A stretch of DNA of 64,000 nucleotides from Methanobacteriota archaeon. Its GTDB lineage: Archaea > Thermoplasmatota > Thermoplasmata > UBA10834. The translations under genes and the position numbers were made by a program. The notes beneath the pieces were generated by a model. It saw only the letters and a program-made list of their open reading frames with translations, did no database searches and was not told the DNA's origin. Positions 32,939 to 62,596 of this stretch are shown here, piece after piece; position 1 is the first letter of the stretch; each line of letters begins with the position of its first letter. Location of the stretch: positions 449,210 through 513,209 of the forward strand of contig CP070748.1 of assembly GCA_020348345.1 (NCBI GenBank). Reading direction: 5' to 3'.

Positions 32939-32958
32939 CAGGCCTGGGATGGGCCAGT

Positions 32959-36137: not shown

Positions 36138-36156
36138 AGGCAATCGTTTTTAATCG

Positions 36157-38098: not shown

Positions 38099-38216
38099 TT
38101 CAGGAGGGGTAGAAGCTGACTGGTCATCAAACTTTCCCGAGCTGCGGTGTTTGCCCTAATGCGCTTGCCAAAAGAGTTATAGGCGCCTAGCATTGTGGGC
38201 ATCAGCAGGCTTCGAG

Positions 38217-39282: not shown

Positions 39283-39768
39283 CTATGCCTCAATGAGTTC
39301 CGCTACTATCTTCTCCACAATCGAGGGGACAGCGGCAGCCACATTCGGTGTGAGGCTCTCACTGACGTTGACGACGTCCGCCGCCTCGACAGCCACGAAT
39401 CGAATGTTGGATGGCATCCTATCCCCTACAAGACGCCTTCCGAGCGCCAAGGCCGTGGCTATATTGATGCCGTGAGGCGATGCGCCGTGGACGGTTCTCT
39501 CGAAGTCGCCTTCTTGCATCGTATGTAATTCCCCCGGGGTGCCGCTCTCGGTTACAATAGCGTCTATTATGACGACATTGTCGTAGTCCAGAACCATGTC
39601 GAGGAGTTCTAGGCCACTTGCCGGCAACTCCTCAACGTCCACACCTGGGAGGGCTCTCTCCTTCAACTTACGGGCGATGTGTATTCCGACGCCGTCATCG
39701 GAGAGAATCGGGTTTCCTACGCCAACAACAAGGGTCTTCTTGCGTCGGCCTTTGCCATTCAGTGTCAT
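39283..39768 (-). CDS. Hydrogenase maturation endopeptidase (HycI/HyaD/FrhD family)
   Basis: TLVVGVGNPILSDDGVGIHIARKL pattern; lies immediately downstream of mvhA. Confidence 0.85.
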   Translation of the reverse strand: MTLNGKGRRKKTLVVGVGNPILSDDGVGIHIARKLKERALPGVDVEELPASGLELLDMVLDYDNVVIIDAIVTESGTPGELHTMQEGDFERTVHGASPHGINIATALALGRRLVGDRMPSNIRFVAVEAADVVNVSESLTPNVAAAVPSIVEKIVAELIEA

Positions 39769-39846
39769 TTGGTGAGTCCTCTCATGCCGCTTCAACCTTA
39801 AGAAAAATATGTTGTCGAGGGGTGTAACCCCTCTTGTCTAAACCGA

Positions 39847-41361
39847 TTAGAAGTTTCTTAGAGTATCTAGCTTCGAACCATCCGCGCGCCTTACATTGAC
39901 CTCAAGCGCAGGCGATCCATTAAGCGCGTGCGTTCCGCAGGAGTTGCACGGGTCGTAGCATCGGAACGCCATCTCAACCTTGTTCAGAAGACCAGGGGAG
40001 ACCTCGCCGTTCTTGATCAAGGCTTTCGCCGCTTGGATAACGCTCGTGTTAATGGCCGCGTAGTTGTTCGTCGTTGCGACTATCATGTTGATCTTCGTGC
40101 ACAGGCCGTCTTTGTCCGAGGCATAGTGGTGTATCAGCGTTCCTCTCGGAGCCTCGCAGATACCTACGCCTTCGGTCGGCTCGTTGACCTCTCCGCGGAT
40201 ATCATCGCTCGTTATGCTCTTGTCGCTGGCTAGTTCAAGCATCCTTTCAGTGGCGTACTGCAGCTCGATGACCCTCGCCCAGTGGAATGCTAGTGTGTGG
40301 TGAACCGGACCTGTCACACCAAGGTCCTTGACCGTCTTTGCCAGCGCTTCATACTCCGCCTGAGCGAGCGGAGTCGTGTAGCCTTCGCAGACATTGATTC
40401 TCCCTAGCGGTCCCACTCTGTAGATGCCGCTCGAAGGTCCGGCCGTGAAGCCGGTCCATCCTACCTGCTTCAGGAATGGCATCTTCATGTAGGTCCAGGG
40501 TTCGACATGCTCGGCGATAACATCCAGATATTCGCTTGGCTTGTACTTCACGACCTCTTTGCCCTCCTGGTCTACAACGCGTATGTCTCCATCGTAGAAG
40601 TTCGTCTTGTTGTCGCTATCGACCATTCCCATGTAGTAGGTCTCGAGGTAGTACGCGTCCTGGTTTAGAACGAGGCCCATGTAGTCCTGGTTGGCCAGCA
40701 CAACGTCGTGCAGCAGCTTGATGGTGAATTTGCCGAACTCCACGCACGACTTCGCCATCTCCTCCATCTGGGCGCGCTCCTCCTCGCTGATCTGCTTGGA
40801 CACGCCTCCAGGGAGACCGAAGCACGGATGCGTGGCCCTCCCGCCGACGATTTCCTGTACCTTCTGACCATACGAACGGTGCTTGATCACCTCTGCGCCG
40901 ATATCGACTCCGACTGCATCAACCACTCCAAGCACGTTCCGCTTGTTCGAGGGTGCGGACGGGCCGAGAACGAAGTCCGGCGCTGCGAGCGCGTAGAAGT
41001 GCGCAATGTGGCTATGGGTGTACTGTCCCATGTAGAACAGCTCTCTGAGCTTCTTCGCCGTCTCGGTAGGCTTTGCATCGAACACAGCATCGAGAGCCTT
41101 GGTCGATGCTATATGATGCGCAGCCGGACACACTCCGCACAGTCTGTTGGTGAGCACCGGCAATTCCTGCACGTGTCTGCCTATACAGAATCGTTCGAAT
41201 CCTCTCAGTTCAGGAACCTGTAGATATGCGTTCGCGACGTTTCCCTCGTCGTTCAGAAATATCTCTATCTTGCCGTGTCCCTCAAGCCTCGTGATCGGGT
41301 CGATCGTTATCTTCTTCTCCGTCGTCTTTGTGGGCGTGTCGTTGATGATTGGTCCTGACAT
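39847..41361 (-). CDS. mvhA: [NiFe] hydrogenase large subunit, Mvh/Vhu type (F420-non-reducing)
   Basis: N-terminal RLEGHG and L1 RLCGVC; C-terminal Ni-binding DPCNSCGTH; no in-frame TGA, so it is the Cys form rather than the Sec form. Confidence 0.9.
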   Translation of the reverse strand: MSGPIINDTPTKTTEKKITIDPITRLEGHGKIEIFLNDEGNVANAYLQVPELRGFERFCIGRHVQELPVLTNRLCGVCPAAHHIASTKALDAVFDAKPTETAKKLRELFYMGQYTHSHIAHFYALAAPDFVLGPSAPSNKRNVLGVVDAVGVDIGAEVIKHRSYGQKVQEIVGGRATHPCFGLPGGVSKQISEEERAQMEEMAKSCVEFGKFTIKLLHDVVLANQDYMGLVLNQDAYYLETYYMGMVDSDNKTNFYDGDIRVVDQEGKEVVKYKPSEYLDVIAEHVEPWTYMKMPFLKQVGWTGFTAGPSSGIYRVGPLGRINVCEGYTTPLAQAEYEALAKTVKDLGVTGPVHHTLAFHWARVIELQYATERMLELASDKSITSDDIRGEVNEPTEGVGICEAPRGTLIHHYASDKDGLCTKINMIVATTNNYAAINTSVIQAAKALIKNGEVSPGLLNKVEMAFRCYDPCNSCGTHALNGSPALEVNVRRADGSKLDTLRNF

Positions 41362-41367
41362 ATAGCA

Positions 41368-42384
41368 TCACCCCTTCCTCTTGCGTTTCTCGGTCACAGT
41401 TCTCTTGAGCAGCGACTTCGGCAGTGTGAAGGCATAGAATGTCCCGAGTGGGTCCTTCACCTGCATCATTAGTTCCATTATCTGCTCCTCACTTAACTTT
41501 GACTCCGAATCCGTGATGTTCAGCAGCGACGACAGCGCGCTCAGCATACTCCCGCCGTGGTCCATGACCGCCTTCGTCGGGCCCATGCAACCCCTGCAGG
41601 GCATGTTGGCTTTCGGGCACATCGAGCCGCATCCAGCTCTCGTCGCTGGGCCAATGCAGATGATCCCCTGATCGAGAAGGCACTTCTTCGGGTCCGCCTT
41701 GATCTCGTATGACTGGTAGATCTTCTCGATCCGTCTTCCCGTCTCGACGCGCTCGCGGTCGCACTCGTCGCACAGGGTCTTGTCCGAAGCGATAACAGCG
41801 CCTTTGGGTGGCAGATCCGCCCCCTCTGTGACGTGCTTCGCCACTGCATCCACTGCCAGAGCGATGAGGTTCACCGTCGGCGGGCATCCCGGCATGAAGT
41901 AGTCCACATCCACAACCTCGTCAAGGGTTTTGACGCTGTCATAGAATTCCGGGAGGTCCAATTCGCCCTCGGGCACCTTCAGCTGTGTCTGAGGCGTTAC
42001 GAAATCGGGGTTGTCCGTCGAGGCGGTGTCCTTGTAGACCGTCTGGAAGACCTCCTTCTTGTTCGTTACATTTGCCAAGCCTGGCGTCCCACCGAAGCAG
42101 GCGCACGATCCAAACGCAATCATCACCGCCGACTTCTCCCGAAGCACCTTCGCCACATGCTCGTTTTCGCTGTTACGTATCGCACCGTTGTAGAACGATA
42201 CGGTGATCGATTTGTCTGGCATAGCCTCTATCTCGGAGAGTTTCCCGTCGAATCCGATCGGCCAGAATACCACCTCGGCTATGGCATGCACATCCAGTAT
42301 CTTCGCATCTATATCCAGCAGGGCAACGTCGCATCCTCCGCAACCAGCCCCCCAGTACTGCGCTATCTTGATCTTGTCTGCCAT
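41368..42384 (-). CDS. mvhG: [NiFe] hydrogenase small subunit, Mvh type
   Basis: N-terminal AQYWGAGCGGC; Fe-S cysteine clusters throughout. Confidence 0.9.
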   Translation of the reverse strand: MADKIKIAQYWGAGCGGCDVALLDIDAKILDVHAIAEVVFWPIGFDGKLSEIEAMPDKSITVSFYNGAIRNSENEHVAKVLREKSAVMIAFGSCACFGGTPGLANVTNKKEVFQTVYKDTASTDNPDFVTPQTQLKVPEGELDLPEFYDSVKTLDEVVDVDYFMPGCPPTVNLIALAVDAVAKHVTEGADLPPKGAVIASDKTLCDECDRERVETGRRIEKIYQSYEIKADPKKCLLDQGIICIGPATRAGCGSMCPKANMPCRGCMGPTKAVMDHGGSMLSALSSLLNITDSESKLSEEQIMELMMQVKDPLGTFYAFTLPKSLLKRTVTEKRKRKG

Positions 42385-42385
42385 C

Positions 42386-42769
42386 TCAGCTCACCTCCTC
42401 GTTCGAAGGTTGGCTTCTCGGAACAGCCTTGTACTGCGGCGACTGTCCGGTCGTGCCGACCTGCTCGATCATCCTCCACCTCTTCAGGGCAATGATGTGC
42501 TGGACGATCTCCGGCTTCGATATGCCCGTCGCGTCGTGCAGCTCGTGCACGGTTCTGGGCTGCTGTTCCATCTGGAGGAGCAGCATGTTTCGCTCCAACT
42601 CCACGGCGGCCGCCTTCTGGAGTATGAAGCTGTATCTCGCATCCGTGATCGTCTCGCCGAACACGTTCTCGCCGGTCGTCAGCGTCTCCTTCTTGCCGAG
42701 GAGCCACCGTATGCGCTCGCCCTCGAGGGTTTTGAGCGCAGCCCGTATCTTGACGTTCCGCGAAGTCAT
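42386..42769 (-). CDS. Winged-helix-like protein homologous to the C-terminal extension of the fused MvhD at 46268..47092; offset by 2 nt from the upstream mvhD
   Basis: FRLKALVGKEFNLLSKGNAYGEEV... (fused copy) aligns with RIRWLLGKKETLTTGENVFGET... (this ORF); wHTH-like segment TVHELHDATGISKPEIVQHIIALKRWRMI. Confidence 0.55.
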   Translation of the reverse strand: MTSRNVKIRAALKTLEGERIRWLLGKKETLTTGENVFGETITDARYSFILQKAAAVELERNMLLLQMEQQPRTVHELHDATGISKPEIVQHIIALKRWRMIEQVGTTGQSPQYKAVPRSQPSNEEVS

Positions 42770-42771
42770 CT

Positions 42772-43233
42772 TCAGTCACCACCTCTGACAGGGGACGGGC
42801 CCAGCTCGTTGACAACGTCCGTGAACTCCACTATCGTCTTCTGGAACCTCTCCCCCTCGCCGGCGGATATCCACTCGAGCTTCAATCGTCCAGGATCGAA
42901 GCCGAACTGCTGAAGCAGTATCCTCAGGAGAGCGATCCTCCTGCGAGTCCTGTAGTTACCTCCGATGTAGTGACAGTCCGCCGGATGGCACCCAGCGACC
43001 AGCACTCCGTCCGCGCCCTTCTGGAACGCTCTCAGAACGAACTCCGGGTCCACTCTCGCGGAGCACATGACCCTGATCACCCTGAAGTGAGGGGGCATCT
43101 GTAATCTGCTTACGCCTGCCAGGTCCGCGCCCGCGTATGAACACCAGTTGCAGCAGAATACGAGGATCCTTGGTTCGAAATCCTCCTGTTCCAACTTGTG
43201 CTCGCCTCCTGCATTTGGGGTCGCACTGCTCAT
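42772..43233 (-). CDS. mvhD: MvhD-like [2Fe-2S] electron-transfer subunit
   Basis: [15 protein letters not shown]...CSARV...[17 protein letters not shown] signature. Confidence 0.85.
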   Translation of the reverse strand: MSSATPNAGGEHKLEQEDFEPRILVFCCNWCSYAGADLAGVSRLQMPPHFRVIRVMCSARVDPEFVLRAFQKGADGVLVAGCHPADCHYIGGNYRTRRRIALLRILLQQFGFDPGRLKLEWISAGEGERFQKTIVEFTDVVNELGPSPVRGGD

Positions 43234-46200
43234 TGCTTCACCTCCTGCTTTCCGAGGAGCCCCTCAAGCGCCGCATCGATCATAGCCACGATCTGCTCGT
43301 CTTTGAATCCCTTCTGTGTCAACGCACCTGACGGGCACGCGCCCACGCACGCGCCACAGCCCTTGCACAGGCCCACGTTGACATCTACGAGCTTCTTAGT
43401 CTCGTCCTTCTTGTCGACGATGATCTCGAGCGCCTTGTATTCGCATGTCGGGACGCAGATGCCGCAGCCGTCGCAGAGAGTCTCATCCAAACTCGCCACT
43501 ATGCCTTCGGCTTCAAGAGTCTTCTTGGACAGTACCGTCATCGCGCGCGCAACGGCGGCGAGACCCTGCCCGATGCTCTCATCGAGGAATTTGGGTCCGT
43601 GCGACAGGCCTGCCAGATAAACCCCCTCCGTCGCGAAGTCGACTGGCCTCAGCTTCATGTGCGCCTCGAGGAAGAAGCCCTCCTTGGTCATCGGGACCTT
43701 GAGCATCGGCGCGAGCGCCTCCGACTCCGGATAGGGCCGTGTGCCCGATGCGAGCACGAGGTAATCGGAGGTCAGGACGACCTCCTTGTCCGTGTCCTCA
43801 TCGGTGACCGTAACCTGCAGCTTGCCTCCCTTGTCCTCGACCTTCGGCTTGACGTCGTCCTCGAACCTGATGAACGTCACGCCCTTCTCGGCCGCGTCCT
43901 TATAGTAGGCCTCTCTGAAACCGTAGGTCCGGATGTCCCTGTAGAGAACGTACACCTTCGCCTCGGGGTTCTTCTCCTTTACCTTGATCGCCGCGGTCAT
44001 CGTTCCTGTGCAGCAGACACGCGAACAGTTCGGATGTCCCTCTTCTCTGGAGCCAACACACTGGATGAACACGTACGAATCGCCCTTGGCCTCGTCCTTC
44101 TTGAGCTTCTCCTTGAACTCGAGAAGTGTGAGCACGTTGGGGTTCTCGCCATAGAGATACTCTCCCTCCGGCTTGTACTCCTGACCGCCCACTGCCAGTA
44201 TAACGACGCCGTGCTCGATCTCCTCTCCGCTGTCGAGCGCGGTCTTGAAGTTCCCCACGTATCCGTCTATATTCTTCACTCCGGTGCCGGTGTGCACGGT
44301 GATGTTGTCGTTCGACATGACCTCCTTGGCCAGCGCATCCGCATGCTCTGTCGGGTCCTCGCCGGACGGCAGATAGTGTAGCTTGCGCAAGTTGCCTCCG
44401 AGCTCCTTCTCCTTCTCGACCAGATGCACCTTCACTCCCTGCTTCGCCATCTCGAGCGCGGCGATCATCCCGGTAGCGCCTCCACCTATTACCAGAGCCT
44501 GTTGGTTCACATCGATGGTCAGGTTCTCCAGTGGCTCCAGCAGCCGGGCCTTCGCCACAGCCATTCGAACCAGGTCCTTCGCCTTCTTCGTGGCAGCCGG
44601 CGCCTCGTGCATGTGGATCCATGAGCACTGGTCCCGTATGTTCGCCATCTCGAACAGATACGAGTTCAGGCCCGCCTCCTTGATGGTGTTCTGGAAGAGC
44701 GGCTCATGCGTCCGGGGCGTGCAGCTCGCCACGACGACCCGGTTGAGCTCGTGCTCCTTGATCATCTCCTTTATCTTCTCCTGGGTATCCTGCGAGCAGG
44801 TGTACAGATTCTCCTCGGCGTATGCGACGTTCGGGAGCGTCCTGGCGTACTCGGCGACTGATGGAACGTTCACCACGCCTCCGATGTTTATGCCGCAGTG
44901 ACATACAAAGACGCCTATGCGAGGCTCCTGGCCCGTTATGTCCAGCTCCTCAGGGTATTCCTTCATGGTGACCAGGCTGTCCCTTGCGGAGGCTATCTCG
45001 GTGGCGGCCTTTGCCGCAGCGCCACTCGCCTCGGCGACGGTCATCGGGATGTCCTTGGGAGATGAGAACGCTCCGCTGACGAAGACGCCCTGCTTGGAAG
45101 AGCTGACCGGGTCGAATACCGTGGTCCGGCAGAAACCGTCCGTGTTCAGATCGAAGCCCATGACCTTGCTCAGAGCCTCCGCGTCCTGCGGCGGCTTCAG
45201 TCCAACGGCGAGAACCACCAGGCCGAATTCCTCCTCCTTCGGTTCGCCCTTCTCGACATACTTGACGACCAGGTTCTTCGTCTCTGGATCCTCGAAGACG
45301 GATGCGACCCTCGAACGCACAAACTCTATGCCGTACTCGTTCTGCGCCCTGTTGTAGTACTCGTCAAACTCCTTGCCAAACGCCCTCATGTCCATGAAGA
45401 ACACCTTGGGCTTGATGTCTCCTCCATGCTCCTTGGCGATTATCGCTTCCTTGATCGAGTACATGCAGCAGACGCCCGAGCAGTACTCGTTTCCGACCTG
45501 CTCGTCCCTCGAGCCCACGCACTGTATGAACGCGATCTTCTCGGGTATGTCTCCATCCGAAGGGCGCAATACGGTGCCGAAGTAGGGCCCCGTGGCGCTG
45601 AGCATCCTCTCGAACTCGATGCTGGTCACGACGTTCTTGTAGACGCCGTATCCGTATTCTCCCTTCATGCGAGCGTCGAACTCGTCGAAGCCTGGAGACA
45701 GTATGATGGAACCCACCTTGATCTCCGAGGTGCTCTCCTCCTGATCGTATACGACCGCCTTGGCCTTGCACTCCTCCGCGCAGATGCCGCAGCCGATGCA
45801 CTTGTCCTTGTCGATGGAGTACACCAGAGGAACCGCCTGCGGGTAGCGGACGTATATCGCCTTGCGAACCTTCGTGTTCTCGTTGTACTCGTCAGAGGTC
45901 TCGATCGGGCAAGTCTGTGCGCACGAACCGCAGCCCGTGCACTTCGCTGGGTCTACCCTCAACGCCCTCTGCTTGACAGTGACGGTGAAATCGCCCGCCT
46001 GGCCGTCCACTGACATGATGTCCGCGTTCGTGACCAGGCTTATGTTGTGGTGTCTTCCCGTCGACACGAGCTTCGGCGCCATGATGCACATCGCACAGTC
46101 GTTCGTCGGGAAGGTCTTGTCCAACTGGGCCATCGTGCCTCCTATGCTGGGCTGCTTCTCGACGAGATATACCTTGAATCCGGAGTCGGCTAGGTCAAGG

Positions 46201-46271
46201 GCGGATTGCAGGCCTGATATCCCTCCTCCGACCACCATGACTGCGCCAACCTTGTCAGTAGCTGCCATCAC
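43230..46271 (-). CDS. hdrA: Extended heterodisulfide-reductase subunit A homolog (about 1013 aa) with an extra N-terminal FAD/NAD(P)-binding module
   Basis: The N-terminal part (VMVVGGGISGLQSALDLA...TFPTNDCAMCI) precedes a complete canonical HdrA. That core contains [30 protein letters not shown] and C-terminal ferredoxin CDGCGIC/CKGCGAC. Confidence 0.85.
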   Translation of the reverse strand: MMAATDKVGAVMVVGGGISGLQSALDLADSGFKVYLVEKQPSIGGTMAQLDKTFPTNDCAMCIMAPKLVSTGRHHNISLVTNADIMSVDGQAGDFTVTVKQRALRVDPAKCTGCGSCAQTCPIETSDEYNENTKVRKAIYVRYPQAVPLVYSIDKDKCIGCGICAEECKAKAVVYDQEESTSEIKVGSIILSPGFDEFDARMKGEYGYGVYKNVVTSIEFERMLSATGPYFGTVLRPSDGDIPEKIAFIQCVGSRDEQVGNEYCSGVCCMYSIKEAIIAKEHGGDIKPKVFFMDMRAFGKEFDEYYNRAQNEYGIEFVRSRVASVFEDPETKNLVVKYVEKGEPKEEEFGLVVLAVGLKPPQDAEALSKVMGFDLNTDGFCRTTVFDPVSSSKQGVFVSGAFSSPKDIPMTVAEASGAAAKAATEIASARDSLVTMKEYPEELDITGQEPRIGVFVCHCGINIGGVVNVPSVAEYARTLPNVAYAEENLYTCSQDTQEKIKEMIKEHELNRVVVASCTPRTHEPLFQNTIKEAGLNSYLFEMANIRDQCSWIHMHEAPAATKKAKDLVRMAVAKARLLEPLENLTIDVNQQALVIGGGATGMIAALEMAKQGVKVHLVEKEKELGGNLRKLHYLPSGEDPTEHADALAKEVMSNDNITVHTGTGVKNIDGYVGNFKTALDSGEEIEHGVVILAVGGQEYKPEGEYLYGENPNVLTLLEFKEKLKKDEAKGDSYVFIQCVGSREEGHPNCSRVCCTGTMTAAIKVKEKNPEAKVYVLYRDIRTYGFREAYYKDAAEKGVTFIRFEDDVKPKVEDKGGKLQVTVTDEDTDKEVVLTSDYLVLASGTRPYPESEALAPMLKVPMTKEGFFLEAHMKLRPVDFATEGVYLAGLSHGPKFLDESIGQGLAAVARAMTVLSKKTLEAEGIVASLDETLCDGCGICVPTCEYKALEIIVDKKDETKKLVDVNVGLCKGCGACVGACPSGALTQKGFKDEQIVAMIDAALEGLLGKQEVKQ

Positions 46272-47092
46272 TGCTCACCCCCAATTGCGATGGTCTTGTA
46301 GACCGGAGTGAATCCCTCCGGGTGCTCCATCGCGATCTTGCTGTTCTGCCTAAGCAGAACGATGTGTCTGAGTATCTTGTCGGTAGGGACGTCCATGACC
46401 ATGCCCAACTGCTTGACCGACATCGGCCGTATCCTCGCGAGTTCAAGTATGAGCGCCCTCTCGAACTCGTCCTGGGTAGCCACGTCTATTACGCCAGTCA
46501 GCTTCTCAGCGTCCACCTCCTCACCGTACGCGTTCCCTTTTGAGAGAAGATTGAACTCCTTGCCGACCAGAGCCTTCAGCCTGAATGTCTGGGAAGCGTC
46601 GTCGGCGGCGGAGACCTTCGCCTTCATCATGTCGTCCGAACGCACCTTGCTGGGTCCCAGCTTCTGTATCCCCTCCGTGAACTCAGTGACCACCTTGGAG
46701 AACTTCTCGCCTTCGGATGCAGAGACCCATTCGAGCCTCAGCCTGCCTTCGTCAATCCCCGCCTCCTTGAGGAGCCTCTTCATGAGTTCCACGCGCTTCT
46801 CGGTGTGGAAGTTGCCTGTCATGTAGTGGCAGTCGTTGAGGTGGCAGCCTCCGATGAGTATCCCGTCGGCACCCGCCTCAAAGACGTCGAGCACCAGGTG
46901 CGGGCTCACTCTCGTGGAGCACATGACCCTGACGAGACGTATGTTCGTCGGATACTGGAATCTGCTTACTCCACATAGGTCCGCGCCGGCGTACGAGCAC
47001 CAGTTGCATAGGAAGCCGACAATCTTCGGCTCCCACTCCTTGTCCGGCTCGTGCTTCTTGCCGTGATGAGCGGTGTGATGCTTTTGCGCCAT
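46268..47092 (-). CDS. MvhD fused to a C-terminal wHTH-like domain
   Basis: MvhD signature ([15 protein letters not shown]...GGCHLNDCHY) over about 140 aa, then a roughly 130 aa domain (LARIRPMSVKQLGMVMDVPTDKILRHIVLLRQNSKI) homologous to ORF 42386..42769. Confidence 0.8.
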   Translation of the reverse strand: MAQKHHTAHHGKKHEPDKEWEPKIVGFLCNWCSYAGADLCGVSRFQYPTNIRLVRVMCSTRVSPHLVLDVFEAGADGILIGGCHLNDCHYMTGNFHTEKRVELMKRLLKEAGIDEGRLRLEWVSASEGEKFSKVVTEFTEGIQKLGPSKVRSDDMMKAKVSAADDASQTFRLKALVGKEFNLLSKGNAYGEEVDAEKLTGVIDVATQDEFERALILELARIRPMSVKQLGMVMDVPTDKILRHIVLLRQNSKIAMEHPEGFTPVYKTIAIGGEQ

Positions 47093-47095
47093 CTA

Positions 47096-48973: not shown

Positions 48974-48979
48974 GTCTGT

Positions 48980-51685: not shown

Positions 51686-51846
51686 TCAAAAACCCCCTTC
51701 TCAAATCTCATGTTCATTCGCATTTGCATTGTGCCTACTGCAATCAACGAACCCCTTTTGCCTTTGCGGTATTGAGTCTCTTCTTTTATGTGTTTCGTTT
51801 GGCCATTGGCGAATCTTGTGCGATGAACGCTTCGCGAATCGCCTCG

Positions 51847-53442
51847 TCATTCCAACGCCTCCGCAATCGCCACGCTGAGGTCCTTGATCTTGATGTCCAC
51901 CTGCTCCTTCGGTATCCCTTCGAGCTTGTTGTCTCGAGCGCAAGCCAGATGAATCAGGCACTTGTAACATCCCGTGACAAGGCAGTCCGCTCCCGTCTTC
52001 TTGGCCTCCTTAAGCCTCTCCACCTGCAGCTTGCGCGCGATATCGTCACACGTTGCCCAGGAGCTTACCCCGCAGCAGGTTGCCTTGTCCTTCGTGTTCT
52101 CCATCTCCACTACGTCGGCTCCGAAGCCCTTCATGGCGTTCCTGGGCGAGTCGTAGATCCCCAGGTGTCTGCCCAGTCGGCAAGAGTCCTGGAAGGTCAG
52201 CTTGTCGGCACCTTTCTTGAACTTCAGTTTTCCATCCTGGATCAGGTCGTCCACGAACTCGGATACGTGGGTCATCTCGAATTCGAAGTCACCCATAAAG
52301 TCCTGATAGTCCATGTCGAAGGTTCTCATGCATTCAGGGCAGGAGAACACGACGGTCTTCGCTCCGGAGGCCTTGATGAGCTCTACATTCCTCTTCATCA
52401 GCTTCTGCAGCCCCTCCTCGTCGCCAGTCCAGTTGAGATCATGCCCGCAGCACACCTCATCGTTGCTGACAACAGGGGTTATGCCTGCACTGTTCATTAT
52501 CTTGACCACAGACTGAGGTATGCCAGCGAGGTTGAGCTCTCTGTCGCGGAAGATAGCATCGAAATACGACACGCATCCAGTGAAGTAGAAGACATCACCC
52601 TTGTCCGCCACCTTCAACTCTGGTGTGAGCCATCCCAGTCTGTCTTGCTTGAAATCTCCGTGTGCCTGGAATCGCATCATTCCCTGCAGGAGTCCACCCT
52701 GACTGCATGCGGGCGTTGCCTCGTTGGCCGCCGCCTCGGTCCTCAATCCTCTGATGAAGCCAGAGTAGTCCACTTTGTACGGGCACATCGAGTTGCACTG
52801 TTCACATGTTATGCAGGTCCAGATATCGTTGCTGGCAACGATGGAATCGGCCTGTCCTTCCGTCGCCTTCAGCACAATCGTTCTGGGGGCGAACTCGGGG
52901 TTGTACTTGGCAACGGGACATACGGTCGTGCACTTGCCGCACTCGACGCAGTCGAAAGCCCCAGTGTCCTCGACGAGGCGATCGACGCTGGGCTTGAGTT
53001 TGGCGGGATCGTAGGTCTTCTTCGGAAGCTTTGGTATCGGGTTGGGGCCTAGCTCTCGTATGCTATCCGTGAATTCCTTCATCGTCGAGGCGAACTTCTG
53101 ACCCTCCGAGGCGGAGATCCATTCCAATCTCATACGGGCCCTGCCTATGCCGACCACGTCCAGCAGGTCCTGTGTGGCCTTCATTCTCTTTTCCGCTTCG
53201 ACGTTTCCGGATATGTAATGACAGTCACCTATGTGGCATCCAGCCACGAGTACGCCATCCGCACCCAGCTCGAGCGCCCTCAGAACAAAGTACGGCTCCA
53301 CCCTTCCAGAGCACATCACCCGGATGATGCGCGCGTTTGGAGGATACTGCATTCTGCTGACCCCTGCCAAGTCCGCGCCGGCGTACGAGCACCAGTTGCA
53401 GCAGAAGGCTACGATGTTCGGCTCGAATTTCTCGCCAGTCAT
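51847..53442 (-). CDS. MvhD-HdrC-HdrB tripartite fusion protein
   Basis: N-terminal MvhD ([15 protein letters not shown]...[10 protein letters not shown]), middle 2x[4Fe-4S] HdrC-like ([12 protein letters not shown] ... [12 protein letters not shown]), C-terminal HdrB CCG-domain pattern (CCGHDLN ... CCGVSSW). The start overlaps the hdrA stop (ATGA); the ORF track extends further 5' inside hdrA. Confidence 0.8.
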
Positions 53443-56400
53443 GTTTTCACCTCCTGCTCGGGCTCCTCGTCTGCAAGTGCCGCCTCTATCATCGTGATGA
53501 TCTGGTCGGATCTGAAGTGCTTCGGTCGAATGGCTCTCGTACAACACTCGACCGCGCATGAGCCGCAGCCTTTGCAGAGAGCCTCCTTGATTCGCGATTT
53601 GAACACTCCGGGCGAGATCTCCTCCACGACCGGGGCTCCGTATTCACAGATGTCCTCGCACCTTCCGCAACCGATGCATTTGTCCTCATCCACGACGCTG
53701 ACGACGCCTTCGGCCTCGATGAACGGCCTTGACAGCACTGTGTTCACTCTGGCTGCTGCCGCGAGCGCCTGCGATATGCTCTCATCGATCAGTCTCGGTG
53801 AGTGGGCGAGACCGCAGAGGAAGATTCCATCGGTGGCAAAATCAACAGGCCTCAGTTTCATATGAGCTTCGAGGAAGAAGCCCTCCCTGTTCTGGGGTAT
53901 CTTCAGAAGCTGCGCCAGATCCTTATTGTCTGGGTTAGGATGGACCGCCGCGTTCAGAACCAGATAGTCAGGTTTGAGTGCAATTCTCTCCTCGATGAAC
54001 TTCTCGTCAATATCTATCTCGAGATCGTCTCCGTTTGCTTTCACTTTCGGAGGCGACTCTGGGTCGAACCTGAGGAACCTGACTCCGAGGCGCGCAGCTT
54101 CGTTGTAGTTCTCCTCAGCGAACCCATAGGTACGTATGTCTCTGAACAGCACGAACACCTCAGTTTCGGGGTGCTCTCTCTTGATCTTCAGAGCGTTAGC
54201 CATCGCGGTTGAGCAACAGATGCGGGAGCAGTTTGGGTGCTCGTCGTTCCTTGATCCCACGCATTGGATGATCACGACGCTTCTGGCGTCAAACTCGCCG
54301 CTGGCAAGCATCTTCCCCAGATCGGTTTGTCTGATGACCTTCGGGTGTTTGCCATACAGGTACTCCTCGGGCTCGTATTCTATAGCTCCAGTCGCCACTA
54401 CGATCGCGCCGTGTTCTATCTTCTCCCCGCTCTTAAGAGTGGTTTCGAAGTTGCCTATGTATCCCTTGACCTCTTCGACGGTATCTTCCAGATGCACTTT
54501 GATCTTCTCGTGTTCCCGAACTTCCTTCTTCAGGCTGGCAAGCGTTTCCCGGGGGTCAACGCCAGAAAGGGTGCTGAATATCGTCCTCAGATGTCCACCC
54601 AGCTCCTTGTCCTTCTCGACCAGGTGAACCTCGTATCCTGCTTTGGCAATCTCTAGTGCGGAGGTCATCCCGCTGAGCCCTCCTCCAATGACCAACGCGG
54701 CGGGTGTGACCGGTATCTTGGGTTGTGGCAACGGTTCAAGTTTGCTCGATTTGGCCACCGCCATCCTCACCAGGTCCTTCGCCTTCTTAGTTGCCGCCTC
54801 GGGTTCCATCCGGTGAACCCAAGAGCACTGGTCTCGTATGTTCGCCATCTCGAACAGGTACTTGTTCAGACCAGCCTCCCTCACCGTGTTCTGAAACAAC
54901 GGCTCGTGCGTCCGCGGTGTGCAGCTCGCGACGACCACTCTGTTGAGATCATGCTCTTCGATTATCTCCTTGATCTTCTTCTGGGTGTCCTGGGAGCAAG
55001 TGTAGAGATTGGCCTCTGCGTAGACCACGCCGGGAAGGCTTGATGCGTACTTCATTACCTCAGGCACGTTGACGACCGCGCCGATATTGATGCCGCAATG
55101 ACAGACGAACACGCCTATGCGAGGCTCCTGACCTTCCAGATTCTTCTCCTCGGGGTATTCCTTCTTGGTGACCAGCTTTCCTCTCTGATCGGCCAGCAAC
55201 GCCGCAACCTTGCCCGCTGCGCCGCTTGCCTGGGCCACTGAGTCGGGGATGTCCTTCGGGCCCGAGAACGCTCCGCAGACGTAGATGCCAGGCGAAGTGC
55301 AGTCGACCGGTGACAGCTCATCAGTCTCACAGAAGCCGTAGCTGTTCATCTTGATACCCAGCATCTTGGCAAGCTGACGTGCCATCTCAGGAGGCTTCGC
55401 GCCGGCAGACAGAACAACCATGTCGAAGGATTCCTCGCTTATGTCAGCATCGTCTATGAAGCTGAGCAAGAGATCGTCGGTTTCATGACTCTGCTGAACC
55501 TTCGATATTCGGTTGTTCCTAAGAATTCTGACACCGTACTCAGTCTCCGCCCGATGAAGGTACTCTTCGAATTCCTTCCCGAACGCGCGCGTATCCATGA
55601 AGAACATGGTCGTTTTGAGTCCAGGCACGTGTTCCTGGGCTATCACAGCCTGTTTGAGGGCTGCCATGCAGCAATACGAAGAGCAGTAAGTGTTCGGTGT
55701 CTGCGCGTCTCGTGAGCCGACGCATTGAATGAACGCTATCTTCTGTGGAACGTCGCCATCCGATGGGCGGATCACATGCCCCTCCGTAGGTCCAGAGGCG
55801 CTCAACATTCGCTCGAACTCTATGTTGCTTACCACATTAGGGTAGACGCCATGGCCGTATGCGTTCTTCTTTGACGCATCGAAGACCTCATAGCCAGTGG
55901 CGAGGATGATCGCTCCGACCTCTATGGTCTCGTCGACCGTCGAGTCCATGCTGTATTCGATTGCGCCGGCCTCGCAGAACTTCTCGCATATGCCACAGCC
56001 GATACAGAGGCCCTTGTCAATCGTGTATATCAAGGGCACTGCCTGAGGAAAGGGGACATAGACCGCCTTTGCAGGTGCGAGATCTCTGTCGAATGAGTTG
56101 GCGCCTTCGATAGGACAGTGTTCCGCGCACACACCGCAGCCAGTGCACTTCTCCTCGACTATGAAGCGCTGGTGCCTTGTGATTGTGACATTGAACTTGC
56201 CCGCCTCTCCTTCTACATTCTTCAGTTCGGCGTTGGTGATGAGGGTGATGTTCTCGTGCCTGCCCGTTGCCACAAGCTTCGGGGACAGAATGCACATGGA
56301 ACAGTCGTTCGTCGGAAAGGTCTTGTCCAGCTGCGCCATCGTTCCGCCGATGCTCGGCGTGGTCTCCAATAGATAGACTTTGTATCCTGATTCCGCGAGG

Positions 56401-56474
56401 TCCAATGCGGCCTGCATGCCCGCTGGTCCTCCTCCCACGACCAGGGCCGCGCCGACGAGTTCGTTATCCGCCAT
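53439..56474 (-). CDS. hdrA: Extended HdrA homolog (about 1011 aa), close paralog of 43230..46271
   Basis: Same architecture as 43230..46271; the central region is roughly 85% identical at the protein level, with near-identical nucleotide stretches. Confidence 0.85.
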
Positions 56475-56476
56475 CG

Positions 56477-56920
56477 TTATGCACTCTCCTCAGCAATAGG
56501 GCCCAGCGTCTGTAGTTCAGCGACCATCTTCTTCACGACGTCGGCGAACTTCTGACCCTCCGAGCCCGCAATCCATTCCACTCTGAACCTCTGCGGCTCC
56601 AGGCCCGCATCCTCAAGGAACTCCGAAAGAAAGATCCCCCTCATGGCCGTCTTCTCATTGCCGTTGATGTAGTGACAGTCAGAGGGATGACATCCGGCGA
56701 CGATGACGCCGTCTGCCCCCAGCGAGAACGCCTTGAGAACAAATGCCGGATCGACTCTCCCGGAGCACATGACCCTGATGATTCTGACGTTTGCAGGATA
56801 CTGAAGCCTCGTCGTACCTGCTAAATCCGCACCAGCATATGAACACCAATTGCAGCAGAAGGCTACGATTTTCGGCTCAAAGGCGGGGTGCTCCATCTCC
56901 GGGTTCGTCCCCTCTTCCAT
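56477..56920 (-). CDS. mvhD: MvhD-like [2Fe-2S] subunit
   Basis: [15 protein letters not shown]...AGCHPSDCHY. The ORF track's N-terminal extension overlaps hdrB in another frame; the true start is the Met just after the hdrB stop. Confidence 0.85.
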   Translation of the reverse strand: MEEGTNPEMEHPAFEPKIVAFCCNWCSYAGADLAGTTRLQYPANVRIIRVMCSGRVDPAFVLKAFSLGADGVIVAGCHPSDCHYINGNEKTAMRGIFLSEFLEDAGLEPQRFRVEWIAGSEGQKFADVVKKMVAELQTLGPIAEESA

Positions 56921-56922
56921 GG

Positions 56923-57840
56923 CTAGGTCCCCCTGAGCTTCCTGAGGAATGAGTGTGCTGATACGTGATGAGTGTCGAAGCCCAGAGAGATCGGATCGAT
57001 CCCCATTGCCAGGGCCTGGAACTGCGAGACATGCATCACCGGAATCCCTTCCTTTGTGAAGGACTTCTGCGCGTTGTCGAACTGAAGGAGGCAGAACGGG
57101 CAGCCTGTGACGATGCAGTCGGCCCCCGCGTCGGCTATGTTCCTGCACTTGTCCTCGGTGAGCGAATTGGCCAAGTCCACAACGTGGGACCGCACGCCCC
57201 CGCCCGCTCCGCAACAGTCCAATCGATCCTCGTACTCGACGCTCGTTGCGCCACATGTCTCGACGATCTTGTCGATGTTGACGGGGTCGTTGGGGTCGTC
57301 GATGGTTTGGTTCTCGGTAGGTCTTAGGTAATGGCAGCCGTAGTGCACGGCAGCTCTTATGTTCTTGAGAGGACGTTTCGCGTGTTCGGCGATGCTCTCC
57401 AGGCCGACGTCGTTGATCATGAGGTCTACGTAATGCCGCACCTTCACCGGCTCCATTATGCGCCGCCGCCCCTCAGTCTTCCTCGGAATGCCGGTGTACT
57501 TCCTGCCTATCTGAGAGAGAACTCTGTTCACCTTGCCGAGATTCTTCGGATCCGTGAGGTATTCGGTCGCCTTCAGGAGGGACGTAAGGCAGCCGTTGCA
57601 GACGGTGAGGATCTCCCTCCGCTCGTTCTGGGCGAGCGTCAGATTGCGAGCCGCCAGAAGGAGCCATGTGTTCTTGTCGGACGAGTAGAAGATGCCAGGT
57701 ACAGGACAGCAAGAGAACTCCTTGATGTCCTCAACGTCCAGGTTGAACCCGTCGCTTCCGCAGACCCATCTCACGGCATATTCGATGCCTGGATACCTGT
57801 TTGGTATTATGCATCCGAAGAAATACGCGTACTGGCTCAA
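56923..57840 (-). CDS. hdrB: Heterodisulfide reductase subunit B
   Basis: Two CCG domains (FSCCPVPG ... LDCCGAGGG); HdrB-like length. Confidence 0.9.
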   Translation of the reverse strand: MSQYAYFFGCIIPNRYPGIEYAVRWVCGSDGFNLDVEDIKEFSCCPVPGIFYSSDKNTWLLLAARNLTLAQNERREILTVCNGCLTSLLKATEYLTDPKNLGKVNRVLSQIGRKYTGIPRKTEGRRRIMEPVKVRHYVDLMINDVGLESIAEHAKRPLKNIRAAVHYGCHYLRPTENQTIDDPNDPVNIDKIVETCGATSVEYEDRLDCCGAGGGVRSHVVDLANSLTEDKCRNIADAGADCIVTGCPFCLLQFDNAQKSFTKEGIPVMHVSQFQALAMGIDPISLGFDTHHVSAHSFLRKLRGT

Positions 57841-58415
57841 GTCTTCACCTCGCTCTCAATACCGATGAGCTTATCGTAGCCCGTCGAGCGCACGAGCAGA
57901 TTGATCTCCCGCACAACCTTCGCGTATTCCTTGTCGCGCGAGGGCATGTCCACAAGCTCGAGCTCCCTCCTGACTCGCTCGATTTCAGGATCGGGCTTTA
58001 CGCTCTGACCGTACTTGAGCAGGTTCGATGCGGCCATCTTTATGAACGGAGGTATGACTCCCTCCTTGATCGCGATGTGTCTCAGCGCTATCATCACCTC
58101 AGCAGGGTTGATGTCCGCGGGACAGTGTTCGTAACATCTGTAGCACGTGGCGCAGACCCATCGAGTTTCAAGCGTGAACTTCTTCAGCCCGAACTGGCAG
58201 AACTTGATGATACTCCTGGTCTTGTAATCGATCTTGAGGCTTATCGGACACACGCCGGTGCAATTGCCGCACTGAAGGCATGTCATCACATCCTTGCCTC
58301 CATGCTTCACAATCTCCTTGGCGAAATCCGGTTCCAGCTGAGATTCATCAATGACTCTGTCTTCAACCAGCTTCTCGCGCAGACCGCTGATGAAGGTCTT
58401 CTCCACCTCTCCCAT
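57837..58415 (-). CDS. hdrC: Heterodisulfide reductase subunit C
   Basis: 2x[4Fe-4S] (CLQCGNCTGVCP ... CATCYRCYEHCP). Confidence 0.9.
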   Translation of the reverse strand: MGEVEKTFISGLREKLVEDRVIDESQLEPDFAKEIVKHGGKDVMTCLQCGNCTGVCPISLKIDYKTRSIIKFCQFGLKKFTLETRWVCATCYRCYEHCPADINPAEVMIALRHIAIKEGVIPPFIKMAASNLLKYGQSVKPDPEIERVRRELELVDMPSRDKEYAKVVREINLLVRSTGYDKLIGIESEVKT

Positions 58416-58417
58416 CT

Positions 58418-60511
58418 TCAGGCCTCCTCCGCCTTCTTCGCGGGCTTCCTCGCCTTGCCGTTAGTCCCCTCCATACCCCCCAGGGCGGAGACTATCTCGG
58501 AGGCTATCTGTTCGTCGGTGAATTGGTTCGCTGTGATGGCCTTCTGCGGACACGCCGCAACGCATGTACCACATCCGTGACATAGCGCTTCCACAACCTT
58601 CGCCTTCGTTCCATTGTCTGTCTCAACGATCTCGGGGGCGCCATACGGACACATCTCAACACAAAGGCCACATCCGATGCAGAGTTCCTCATTGATGGAA
58701 GCGGTGAGTGGCTCGATCTTGACCTTCTTGCCAGCCATGATGGATGCTGCTGACGCCGCCGCTGCCTTAGCCTGAGCGACGGAATCGGGTATGTCCTTGG
58801 GGCCCTGGGCGCATCCAGCGAGGTAGATGCCGTCAACAGCCGTGTCGACCGGCCTTAGCTTCGGGTGTGCCTCCTGGAAGAAGCCGTCCGGGCTTAGGGA
58901 TAAGGAGAGTATCTTACCGATCCTCTTGCTGCCCTCCGACGGTTGAAGTCCCGTGGAAAGGACGATCAGGTCGAACTCCCTTTCTGTTATCTTGTTCAGC
59001 AACGTCTCCTCGGCCCTAATCGTGATGGAGTTCGTCTCGGAATCCTCGCTCAGCTTCGCCGGCCGTCCTCGTATGAACTCGATGCCATACTCCTCTCTGA
59101 CACGATGATACAGCTCTTCGAAGCCCTTCCCGAACGCCCTGATGTCATTGTAGTAGACCGCGATTTCGGTGTCGGGTTCGTGCTCCTTGATGATTTGGGC
59201 GTTTTTCATCGAGTACATGCAGCAGACGCGAGAGCAGTAGTCGTTGCCTATCTTCTTGTTCCTCGAGCCGACGCATTGGATGAAGGCGACCCTCTTGGGG
59301 CTCTCGCCGTCGGACGGCCTTATCAGATGTCCTCCCGTCGGACCCGAGGCGTTCAGCAGCCGTTCGAGCTCCAAACCTGTGATGACATTCTGATATTCCC
59401 AGTATTTGTATACGCCGCGTTTCATCGGGACATAGATGTCGAAGCCAGTAGCGCATATTATCGTGCCGACCTTCAGCTCGACCATTTCGTCCTCCATCTC
59501 ATGGTCGATTGCCTCGTTGGCGCATGCCTTCAGACAGGCCTTGCACTTCCCGGTTTTGAAATGGATGCAGTTATCCTTGTCGATCGTGTATTTCAGCGGC
59601 ACCGCTTGAGGAAACGGCACATAGATCGCCTTCCTCTTCCCGAAACCCATATCGAACTTGTTGTCGACTTTGACTGGGCAAGCATCGGCGCAGACTCCGC
59701 ACCCCACACACTTGTCCTCCACTACGTATCTAGCCTTTCTTCTGACCTTGACACTGTAATTGCCAATGAATCCGCTGACGTCCTCCACCTCCGAGTAGGA
59801 TAGGAGCGTTATGTTGGGGTGTCTGGCCAGTTCCACCATCTTGGGCGCCAGAATACATATTGCGCAATCCCCTGTGGGAAAAGTCTTGTCGAGCTGAGCC
59901 ATGCGTCCTCCGATGCTCGGCTCCGACTCCACGACGAATACCTTGAACCCCATCTGGGCCAGATCAAGGGCGGCCTGGATACCTGCGACTCCTCCGCCGA
60001 TCACAAGAGAGGATTGCTCGACCGGCACCTCTCTGGCCTCGAGCGGAACCAGCTTCTCGGCCTTGGCGATACCCATCCTGACGAGGTCTACGGCCTTCTC
60101 TGTAGCCCTGTCCTTCTCCTTGGAATGGACCCATGAGCATTGCTCTCGCACATTCACCATCTGAAGCATATACGGGTTGAGGCCGGCCTCCTGGATGCAG
60201 CTCCTGAAGGTGGGCTCGTGCATCCGGGGCGAGCACGCTGCAACGACAACCCTGTTCACATCGTTCTCCTTGACGGCCTTGATGATCTCTTCTTGACCGA
60301 GGTCGGAGCATGTGTACTTGTTCTCCTTCGCCACGACAACGCCCGGAACCTTCTCGGCCGCTTCCCTGACCTTGGAAACATCAACAGTGCCTGCAATGTT
60401 GCTGCCGCAGTGACAAACAAAAACTCCGATTCTGGGCGTCATCGAATCCTTTGCAGGCGGCGTCTTCGGTCCTTCCGGGGCTCTCTCTTCGAGTGGTTCG
60501 GGTGAACTCAT
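58418..60511 (-). CDS. hdrA: Heterodisulfide reductase subunit A (canonical roughly 700 aa architecture)
   Basis: N-domain [19 protein letters not shown] domain [17 protein letters not shown]...[11 protein letters not shown], inserted and C-terminal ferredoxins (CVGCGVC, CIGCGLC, CHGCGTC); SD GGAGGGG. Confidence 0.9.
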
Positions 60512-62330: not shown

Positions 62331-62333
62331 GGC

Positions 62334-62561: not shown

Positions 62562-62596
62562 CGGACCGTCGGTATGAGCGGTTCGCCCATATAGTT

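Follow-up and report, generated by a model that had tools for sequence, protein, structure and literature searches.

A 64-kb window of DNA (64,000 nucleotides of contig CP070748.1) from an uncultured archaeon of the Thermoplasmata lineage UBA10834 carries, on its minus strand at positions 39283-60511, an array of 15 intact open reading frames (ORFs) without frameshifts or internal stops. These genes, numbered g1 to g15 from the upstream end (Table 1), include five of the HdrA family (g1, g5, g7, g8 and g10), four MvhD modules and both subunits of one Mvh-type [NiFe] hydrogenase. We propose that the region is a hydrogenase-centred "Hdr island", in which four paralogous bifurcation units would work as separable complexes around the one Mvh hydrogenase instead of forming one obligate megacomplex, and we give this reading a probability of about 60%. 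Four kinds of evidence were read from the sequence, namely cofactor-binding residues, domain complementarity, the pairing of HdrA with MvhD, and the modular distribution of the genes.

Genes were assigned with Pfam and NCBIfam profiles, structural homologues were taken from PDB sequence matches, and the boundaries of the units were set by a rule, each HdrA being followed by its own MvhD. On this basis, U1 (g1-g4) is predicted to be a canonical HdrA2(BC)2-MvhD set, and U2 (g5 and g6) to combine a covalent HdrA pseudo-heterodimer with an MvhD fused to an HdrD-like CCG subunit. U3 (g7, g8 and g9) reads as a split pseudo-heterodimer with an NADPH-type GltD/NfnB module in its low-potential ferredoxin arm and a BamF-like adaptor. 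U4 is made up of the second predicted fused HdrA (g10), an MvhD (g11) and possibly a free winged-helix piece (g12), and is followed by MvhG, MvhA and the protease. An earlier note on this DNA, made from the letters alone, had listed MvhA, MvhG, five HdrA, four MvhD modules and HdrBC in this range and on this strand, and both the list and the description of the array as modular were borne out by the ORFs and Pfam matches, with four HdrA units each having its own MvhD. Its count of nineteen genes was too high, this number being reached only by adding hypD, hypA, hypC and hypF at 60875-64000.

The distribution of the units was followed in 80 loci; because these were retrieved by similarity to g5, the counts given here are not an unbiased census. 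In a GTDB set with one genome per species, the nearest loci were from uncultured Thermoplasmata, with amino acid identities of 82-86% for the UBA10834 isolate and 90-94% for the locus L026, and g9 was 100% identical to the NCBI protein UCE45744.1. The array is syntenic in related Thermoplasmata metagenome-assembled genomes (MAGs) of UBA10834, or Candidatus Gimiplasmatales, and the entire order of g1-g12 is common to L026, L003 and L004. The earlier note had allowed that the same order might exist in a characterised organism; we found it only in uncultured Thermoplasmata MAGs. An assembly chimera was rejected, as the same order occurred in the independent MAGs L026, L003, L004 and L019.

Whole units come and go among these relatives. 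L002, a closed chromosome of 1.42 Mb, is without g6-g8, and L005 is without g1-g4 at the array locus. L014 (CP070739.1, Methanomassiliicoccales archaeon bin396) has, at 4.8-21 kb, at least four consecutive pairs of an MvhD with winged-helix extension (MvhD-wH) and a ~1000-aa HdrA, followed by a plain MvhD; the copies are 48-61% identical to g9 and g10, and this HdrA amplification is denser than that in the window. L030 carries a single block, long HdrA-MvhD-wH-MvhG-MvhA-HdrC-HdrB. Across the 80 loci, long HdrA genes lay directly upstream of an MvhD-type gene in 93 of 117 cases, most of the others being at contig edges, and a rule of hdrA or hdrL followed by mvhD has also been noted in D. autotrophicum. 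The independent gain and loss of units therefore argues for parallel modules that share one hydrogenase, and not for an obligate multi-input megacomplex. The one multi-input assembly suggested in the earlier note need not hold, given the losses in L002 and L005, the repeated pair of L014 and the long HdrAs with an MvhD of their own.

HdrA modules and the pyridine nucleotide insert

We aligned g1, both halves of g5 and g10, g7 freed of its insert, and g8 to the HdrA of M. wolfeii and tabulated every ligand position. This protein was also the best PDB match of g1 (5odc_A, E 1.4e-275), with an end-to-end alignment in which g1 keeps all cluster cysteines, the four domains, the six [4Fe-4S] ligand sets, Cys194/197, E356 and K409, and only the non-ligand Cys23 differs. 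The remaining modules were of two types. N-type modules (the first halves of g5 and g10, and g7) keep the Cys194/Cys197 pair, the cysteines of the inserted ferredoxin domain (8/8), the TrxR cluster, E356 and K409; C-type modules (the second halves of g5 and g10, and g8) have neither the Cys pair nor the inserted ferredoxin domain.

In g5, which matched PDB HdrA chains in three segments, the N-type half is without the N-domain but has kept Cys58 and Cys61 as a pair, together with the inserted ferredoxin domain, E221 and K274. Its C-type counterpart has the N-domain as well as the ferredoxin domain at the C-terminus, with E356 replaced by Gly and K409 by Ala (A759), and with D640/E643 at the Cys-pair positions. 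The first module of g10 has C59/C62 and K274 and the second has T759, and the C-type halves of g5 and g10 are both without E356 and K409. The free C-type module g8, composed of N-domain, TrxR and C-terminal ferredoxin domain, retains the equivalents of E356 and K409 (E286 and K326), unlike the fused C-halves, and g7 keeps Cys53/56, E689 and K742. From this complementary loss of domains in N- and C-type modules, we therefore read g5 and g10 as covalent pseudo-heterodimers and g7 plus g8 as the same arrangement in two genes. No fused HdrA was present among the PDB sequences searched. The halves of g5 and g10 are 56-57% identical, and the two genes appear to be old paralogues; in a neighbour-joining tree, the orthologue group of g10 was distinct from that of g5 and sister to the "Dw-AA-D-C-B-G-H" HdrAs of Bathyarchaeia.

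A close parallel to g5 and g10 is BamE, from the class II benzoyl-CoA reductase (BCRII) of Geobacter metallireducens, compared here by its published description. Cryo-electron microscopy of BamE (10.64898/2026.04.10.717634) locates the FAD that bifurcates in TrxR1, together with Lys280 and the pair Cys59-Cys62, and assigns a structural role to the second FAD. Cys58/61 and K274 of g5 correspond to these residues, and in both g5 and g10 the signature (Lys at N5, Cys-x2-Cys) is found in the first TrxR only, a near residue-for-residue agreement. We had first placed the bifurcating flavin in the C-type half, on account of its MvhD docking arm; this was ruled out by the table of E356/K409 and Cys-pair positions and by the BamE structure. 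Since g8 keeps the E356/K409 signature, U3 may hold two bifurcation-competent HdrA flavins besides the GltD flavin.

A side observation concerns residues ~340-400 of g8, where an acidic, Arg-rich low-complexity insert (…EDEGLERRRRRRGRGRREADE…) interrupts the TrxR domain. Its core, ERRRRRRGR, is conserved in five orthologues (L003, L005, L019, L021 and L026) and is absent from g5, g10 and canonical HdrA.

The insert of g7 (~477 aa, residues ~150-627) is a FeS-FAD-NAD(P)H module placed within the inserted ferredoxin domain, with one of that domain's two cluster motifs on each side (CTGCGDCFKVCP and CSQCEACAPAC). Pfam placed Fer4_20 and Pyr_redox_2 at residues 153-540, and residues 152-554 matched NfnB of T. 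maritima (4ylf_B, 7.5e-99) and NfnI of P. furiosus (5jca_L), with HdrA on both sides. The match covers NfnB and GltD (4YLF, 5JCA) from end to end and includes the two-cluster Fer4_20 domain and both Rossmann motifs; the array differs from NfnAB in having no NfnA partner and in that the module is internal to HdrA. Because it is an internal HdrA insertion, its FeS arm would be wired to the HdrA clusters and not to free ferredoxin. The second Rossmann motif, VIGGGNAAMDAA...VIYRR, is of the GXGXXA / YRR form and thus NADPH-type by the GXGXXA rule from the literature. With a group-3c-like MvhAG and its hyp genes at the same place, both inputs that the earlier note had put forward, H2 and NAD(P)H, are encoded.

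Among the best 120 matches to g7, ~30 are of ~900 aa (split) and 89 are of 1400-1565 aa and include the C-type half; g7 and g8 read as the split form of this ~1470-1565-aa family. The pair is present without the GltD insert in L003, L004, L005, L019 and L021. The absence of the insert from L003, L004 and L005 had suggested a recent gain in g7, which the tree of the HdrA parts ruled out: the insert-less 432-aa orthologues of these five loci nest within insert-bearing split forms, and those within the ~1480-aa fused forms. Because of this nesting, we take the insert to be ancestral in the g7 paralogue and lost in some close relatives. A tblastn reading in which L019 and L021 were fused at the g7/g8 position was also discarded, as ORF calling gave split 432/436-aa and C-type genes.

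MvhD adaptors, output modules and the predicted electron path

All four MvhD modules (g4, g11 and the N-termini of g6 and g9) are full-length FlpD domains with E from 1e-52 to 1e-55, and the MvhD part of g6 matched 5odc_D (9.5e-53). In g9 the domain is followed by an extension of ~125 aa that aligns with g12 and is homologous to it. A profile of g12 retrieved 172 representative clusters among 1.84 billion proteins. The module stood directly C-terminal to FlpD in 8 of 10 longer members sampled, some being HdrA(C-type)-ferredoxin-MvhD-wH triple fusions, and in the fetched loci it was fused in 41 ORFs, with a few truly free copies. A fold search with an AlphaFold2 (AF2) model of g12, of predicted local distance difference test score (pLDDT) 77, found no specific structural neighbour, all matches being helical and unspecific. 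Cysteine is absent from both g12 and the g9 extension, which ruled out g12 as a DsrC-like thiol substrate of the CCG subunits.

Public records name relatives of g12 "ArsR family transcriptional regulator", and g12 itself scores above the cutoff for Pfam HTH_5 (27.6 bits, cutoff 22), with no NCBIfam match. Taken at face value, this would make g12 and the g9 extension DNA-binding regulators of the ArsR type, sensing redox state through the [2Fe-2S] cluster of MvhD and controlling the operon. We consider this highly improbable. The module occurs almost only as the tail or the neighbour of MvhD inside hdrA clusters, in bacteria and archaea alike and even in triple fusions; g12 is separated by 2 nt from mvhD on one side and by 1 nt from mvhG on the other; and g12 has no ArsR metal site, just as it has no cysteine. 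Moreover, in BamF, an MvhD adaptor >100 aa longer than usual, the winged helix-turn-helix is a protein-protein interface that grips the input module in BCRII (10.64898/2026.04.10.717634), and g9, compared with that published description, is likewise ~130 aa longer than the usual MvhD. Because the module co-occurs with MvhD and BamF is described with a winged helix, the g9 extension and g12 are probably structural adaptor parts, and the public name is probably wrong.

We also observed that the first Cys of the FCCNWC motif, present in the other three MvhD modules, is a Leu in g9 (FLCNWC). For BamF, a mechanistic role has been suggested for a selenocysteine close to the [2Fe-2S] cluster.

On the hydrogenase side, the best PDB match of g14 was M. 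wolfeii MvhA (5odc_F, 2.7e-113); the RLCGVC and DPCNSCGTH motifs (RxCGxC and DPCxxCxxH) are present, as is a C-terminal extension for proteolytic maturation. On the output side, the array has two CCG modules only, g2/g3 and g6, both with complete cysteine motifs. In g3 these are two full C...CC...CxxC motifs. The CCG part of g6 matched best the "iron-sulfur-binding reductase" 9ojn_A, not HdrB, and is closer to proteins of the HdrD/TfrB/LdhH type.

Judged by analogy to the structures known from M. wolfeii and BCRII, MvhAG would oxidise H2, and electrons would enter each HdrA unit by way of its MvhD and of the ferredoxin arm at the C-terminus, to be bifurcated at the N-type flavin. On the low-potential side, the path would lead from the Cys pair to the N-domain cluster, then to the inserted ferredoxin domain, and end at ferredoxin; in U3 it could instead end at the GltD flavin and NADP(H). 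On the high-potential side, electrons would pass from the TrxR cluster either to the CCG subunits (g2/g3, g6) or to partners from elsewhere in the genome, for example MetFV, the final acceptor being presumably some disulfide or another high-potential compound. Given the folate pathway of the lineage, methylene-tetrahydrofolate reached via MetFV, as in acetogens, is an attractive candidate acceptor for U3 and U4. No metF or metV domain was found among the ORFs scanned in the 64-kb window. A three-gene 2-oxoacid/pyruvate:ferredoxin oxidoreductase (fused gamma-delta, alpha, beta) lies at 14334-17292 on the plus strand, and is likely to consume or produce the ferredoxin of the Hdr units.

Known systems and competing explanations

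The earlier note did not recognise a described complex in the array. Every type of module found here is in fact in the literature (type II HdrA, type III HdrA, winged-helix MvhD/BamF), two of them purified or solved. The full subunit set of MvhADG-HdrABC (Methanothermococcus/Methanothermobacter, 5ODC) is matched by g1-g4 with g13 and g14, its chains 5odc_A, 5odc_F and 5odc_D being the counterparts of g1, g14 and the MvhD modules. The array differs by adding three more HdrA units at the same locus, and because the host lineage is reported to be without Mcr, CoM-S-S-CoB is an unlikely substrate. With the Bam system the array has in common not only BamE-like and putatively BamF-like proteins but also an HdrD-like CCG part, in g6 as in BamD, and the BamDEF order (HdrD-like, long HdrA, MvhD) was found in related bacterial loci. 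It differs from BCRII by the absence of selenocysteine and of the tungsten subunits BamB/BamC and HydABC-like BamGHI, of which none was found in or beside the array; the adjacent input module is a [NiFe] hydrogenase.

The best-studied protein with the architecture of g7 and g8 is the HdrA of Moorella thermoacetica, of 1487 aa, which oxidises NADH and in which an N-terminal ferredoxin and TrxR part interrupted by an FeS/FAD/NAD(P)H module is followed by a part without inserted ferredoxin. Its domain order equals that of g7 plus g8, and the ~1470-1565-aa relatives of g7 fit its description; the HdrA of Sporomusa ovata (942 aa) resembles g5 and g10. The order HdrCB, HdrA, MvhD of the Hdr-type methylene-tetrahydrofolate reductase clusters (HdrCBA-MvhD-MetVF) of Moorella and Sporomusa is mirrored by g6(CB)-g7-g8-g9. 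In the array, in contrast, the protein is split over two genes, no metVF occurs in the window, a hydrogenase stands alongside, and the nucleotide motif is NADPH-type (GXGXXA).

Type II and type III HdrA have been catalogued in anaerobic methanotrophic archaea (ANME), Bathyarchaeota and methanogens (HdrA3/4, 5/6 and 9-11; Chadwick 2022; Lyu 2025). In ANME, the fused or tandem HdrA3/4, 5/6 and 12/13 show complementary loss of Cys197 and of the N-domain. Type III HdrA, or HdrL (ANME-1, Bathyarchaeota; Desulfobacterium autotrophicum HdrL), bears a ~500-aa NfnB/GltD insertion in the inserted ferredoxin domain. These surveys cover mcr-bearing archaea only and list nine type III sequences. In ANME HdrA3/4 as described, the half order is reversed, the Cys197-bearing half coming first in the array. 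The array further differs in having no FdhAB or molybdopterin partner and in joining all types at one place with MvhAG.

Genome studies of UBA10834 (Ca. Gimiplasmatales) report that the lineage has no mcr, list HdrA-D, MvhAGD, CODH/ACS and a Wood-Ljungdahl pathway of the folate type, and leave the hdr array undissected. The host is probably non-methanogenic. Predictions for the lineage include amino acid fermentation and possibly the use of methyl compounds, and UBA10834 has also been proposed to live autotrophically, using H2. No array of this make-up, with type I, type II and split type II/III HdrA, three forms of MvhD and a single Mvh hydrogenase in a probably non-methanogenic member of the Thermoplasmata, is described in the searchable literature, nor is the function of the module long HdrA - MvhD-wH - long HdrA - MvhD, which U3 and U4 match.

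This module is widespread. The pattern [long or split HdrA]-MvhD-wH-long HdrA was present in 24 of the 80 loci, in Bathyarchaeia, Asgard, Desulfobacterota, Chloroflexota and WOR-3. Bathyarchaeia loci (L007-L036; for example L009, 8474-18337) have the order GltD/NfnB-like, MvhD-wH, long HdrA, MvhD, HdrC, HdrB, MvhG, MvhA. There, a GltD/NfnB-like protein of ~575 aa with an HdrA-type C-terminal ferredoxin domain stands in the place of the first HdrA, and the pyridine-nucleotide module is thus predicted to be a separate protein with its own MvhD docking domain. HdrC-HdrB-long HdrA-MvhD and HdrD-like-long HdrA-MvhD, the Moorella/Sporomusa and Bam orders, were common among the fetched loci. The cultured Desulfotruncus alcoholivorax combines an HdrD-like protein, a 1488-aa fused HdrL-like protein and MvhD.

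U3 and U4 may associate with each other, and a possibility was that g7-g14 form one two-stage complex, with U1 and U2 separate. Here g9 would dock an HdrA unit onto the other HdrA or onto the hydrogenase, and the two HdrA flavin sites and the GltD flavin would work in series or serve alternative inputs. The recurrence of the pattern across many phyla is consistent with this, as are the Bathyarchaeia GltD-like protein that replaces the first HdrA with the rest of the order kept, the grip of the BamF winged helix on the input module in BCRII, and the E356/K409 signature of g8. Serial bifurcation has been proposed for clusters of type II with type I HdrA. Gene adjacency by itself, however, is no proof of contact, the pair repeated four or more times in L014 looks like paralogous amplification and not like a fixed stoichiometry, and the fold search with the winged-helix piece was uninformative. 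We regard such a complex as unlikely. Its fullest form, a single machine in which winged-helix adaptors would wire the HdrA bifurcation sites for joint use of H2 and NADPH, or for bifurcating the low-potential output again to reach potentials or acceptors beyond those of a single Hdr, is distinctly unlikely in our judgement. If true, this wiring would also explain the widespread long HdrA - MvhD-wH - long HdrA - MvhD module of anaerobic bacteria and archaea, to which no reaction has been assigned so far.

We think it very unlikely that all 15 products make up one multi-flavin, multi-input supercomplex joining H2 and NAD(P)H. Near-continuous translational coupling, the g6 fusion that could physically bridge two HdrA units, the order g1-g12 kept in L003, L004 and L026, and the precedents for very large Hdr assemblies and two coupled bifurcation modules (BCRII; Fdh-Hdr-Fmd) speak for it. 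Yet the units are gained and lost independently in close relatives such as L002 and L005 and are also found separately across phyla, each HdrA unit has its own MvhD and each long HdrA a single MvhD docking arm, and no shared scaffold protein is evident. A different question is the direction of flow. In rather doubtful standing, to our mind, is the view that the hardware runs mainly in reverse, by confurcation, with reduced ferredoxin plus NADPH or thiols being oxidised and H2 released while the cells ferment or grow methylotrophically. Bifurcation at flavins can run in both directions, the predicted metabolism of the lineage would suit such a role, and similar roles have been proposed for HdrL complexes and ANME Hdr; on the other hand, nothing in the sequence sets the direction, the group-3c Mvh of methanogens are known as uptake enzymes, and the autotrophic, H2-using lifestyle has equally been proposed for UBA10834.

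Several points weigh against separable units around one hydrogenase. The tight translational coupling of the 15 genes would also fit a single large assembly, of which Hdr examples are known (BCRII, Fdh-Hdr-Fmd), and the choice between H2 uptake and H2 evolution is not set by the sequence. It is ambiguous to which unit g6 belongs: by its MvhD domain it comes after g5, yet g6 was lost together with g7-g8 in L002, and in Moorella the order is hdrCB-hdrA-mvhD. Two HdrB/C-type output modules have to serve four HdrA units, and U3 and U4 are without an obvious high-potential acceptor in the array. HdrB, HdrC, MvhA and MvhG all score below NCBIfam equivalog cutoffs (g3, TIGR03288, 319 bits, just below the cutoff of 345; g2, TIGR03290 HdrC, 118.7 against 160; g14, VhuA, 414 against 800; g13, VhuG, 224 against 450). 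Finally, the trees were built by simple neighbour joining and carry no support values, and dS approaches saturation.

Gene context and significance

The genes of the array are spaced by -4 to +6 nt, the g6 ATG overlapping the g5 stop by 4 nt, with the exceptions of 161 nt before g7 and 51 nt (39796-39846) before g15. The single transcription unit assumed in the earlier note is not assured; both the 161-nt gap and the 363-nt region upstream of g1 could hold a promoter: the former may contain an internal one, and the latter, with its AT-rich stretches, is likely to be the main promoter region. A scan for sigma-70 promoters and intrinsic terminators gave about the number expected from shuffled sequence, its models not being applicable to an archaeon. 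The same note had considered that HdrA copies might be pseudogenes. This was excluded, along with decay of the array: the copies are intact, orthologues are without stops, and g1-g12 are under purifying selection, with ratios of nonsynonymous to synonymous substitution rates (dN/dS) of 0.02-0.18 against L026, L019 and L003, approximate values given the large dS. Maturation genes flank the array at both ends, with hypF, hypC, hypA and hypD co-directional upstream and hypE downstream on the other strand.

Table 1. Genes and intergenic regions of the Hdr array and its flanks, in window coordinates
Feature	Position	Strand	Description
hypF	from 62597, past window end	minus	Pfam HypF_C
hypC	62334-62561	minus	Pfam HupF_HypC
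hypA	61956-62330	minus	Pfam HypA
hypD	60875-61963	minus	Pfam HypD 1.5e-125
Intergenic region, 363 nt	60512-60874	minus	Upstream of g1; AT-rich TATA-like stretches, GGAGG ribosome-binding site
g1	58418-60511	minus	Canonical (type I) HdrA, 697 aa
g2	57837-58415	minus	HdrC-like, 2x[4Fe-4S], 192 aa; Pfam Fer4_9/Fer4_8
g3	56923-57840	minus	HdrB-like, two CCG domains, 305 aa; Pfam CCG E 3.5e-29, two stretches
g4	56477-56920	minus	Stand-alone MvhD adaptor ([2Fe-2S]), 147 aa; Pfam FlpD E 3.7e-54, full length
g5	53439-56474	minus	Fused double (type II, BamE-like) HdrA, 1011 aa
g6	51847-53442	minus	MvhD-HdrC-HdrB (HdrD-like) fusion, 531 aa; FlpD 2.2e-55, Fer4_17/8, CCG 8.3e-24
Intergenic gap, 161 nt	51686-51846	minus	Sole sizeable gap within the array; ~0.6 kb in relatives
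g7	48980-51685	minus	N-type HdrA half with GltD/NfnB insert, 901 aa; type III / HdrL-like
g8	47096-48973	minus	Free-standing C-type HdrA half, 625 aa
g9	46268-47092	minus	MvhD with C-terminal helical, winged helix-turn-helix-like extension (BamF-like), 274 aa; FlpD 1.2e-52 at residues 24-146
g10	43230-46271	minus	Second fused double (type II) HdrA, 1013 aa
g11	42772-43233	minus	Stand-alone MvhD adaptor, 153 aa; Pfam FlpD 1e-54
g12	42386-42769	minus	Free copy of MvhD C-terminal extension, HTH-like, 127 aa
g13	41368-42384	minus	MvhG-like [NiFe] hydrogenase small subunit, 338 aa; Pfam Oxidored_q6
g14	39847-41361	minus	MvhA-like [NiFe] hydrogenase large subunit, 504 aa
g15	39283-39795	minus	Hydrogenase maturation endopeptidase; Pfam HycI; TIGR00072 108.9 bits, above cutoff 47
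hypE	38193-39263	plus	NCBIfam TIGR02124 378.9 bits, above cutoff 251.6; convergent with the array

Further genes of the window were noted in passing. At 34134-37487 on the plus strand, just upstream of mobA and hypE, a response-regulator-PAS-GAF-histidine-kinase hybrid (667 aa) is followed by overlapping ORFs (229 and 219 aa) without NCBIfam match; these genes could be regulators of the hydrogenase island. At 32120-33879, an NAD synthase gene (minus strand) and a nitrilase/CN-hydrolase-family gene (plus strand) are divergent and look like a split glutamine-dependent NAD synthetase. At 28497-31061 on the minus strand, two genes of the clostripain family (peptidase C11) stand in tandem and encode 401 and 388 aa. 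An 868-aa protein encoded at 9030-11636 on the plus strand is largely made up of TPR repeats, has a restriction-endonuclease-like domain (Mrr_cat) at its N-terminus, and is preceded by a 629-aa TPR protein (7141-9030).

In many strict anaerobes, low-potential electrons are provided by soluble bifurcating enzymes of the Hdr type, and the reactions of fused (type II) and GltD-inserted (type III) HdrA are known in just two or three cases. The array described here brings three HdrA types, three MvhD forms and two CCG modules together with one hydrogenase, in a lineage where a heterodisulfide to be reduced is probably lacking. As regards annotation, the entry "HdrABC/MvhADG present" in surveys of Gimiplasmatales hides four distinct units. 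The relatives provide natural variants, with the double HdrA fused or split, the GltD insert kept or lost, the winged helix fused or free, and units present or absent, and these can help to assign partners by co-variation and to choose constructs for heterologous expression.

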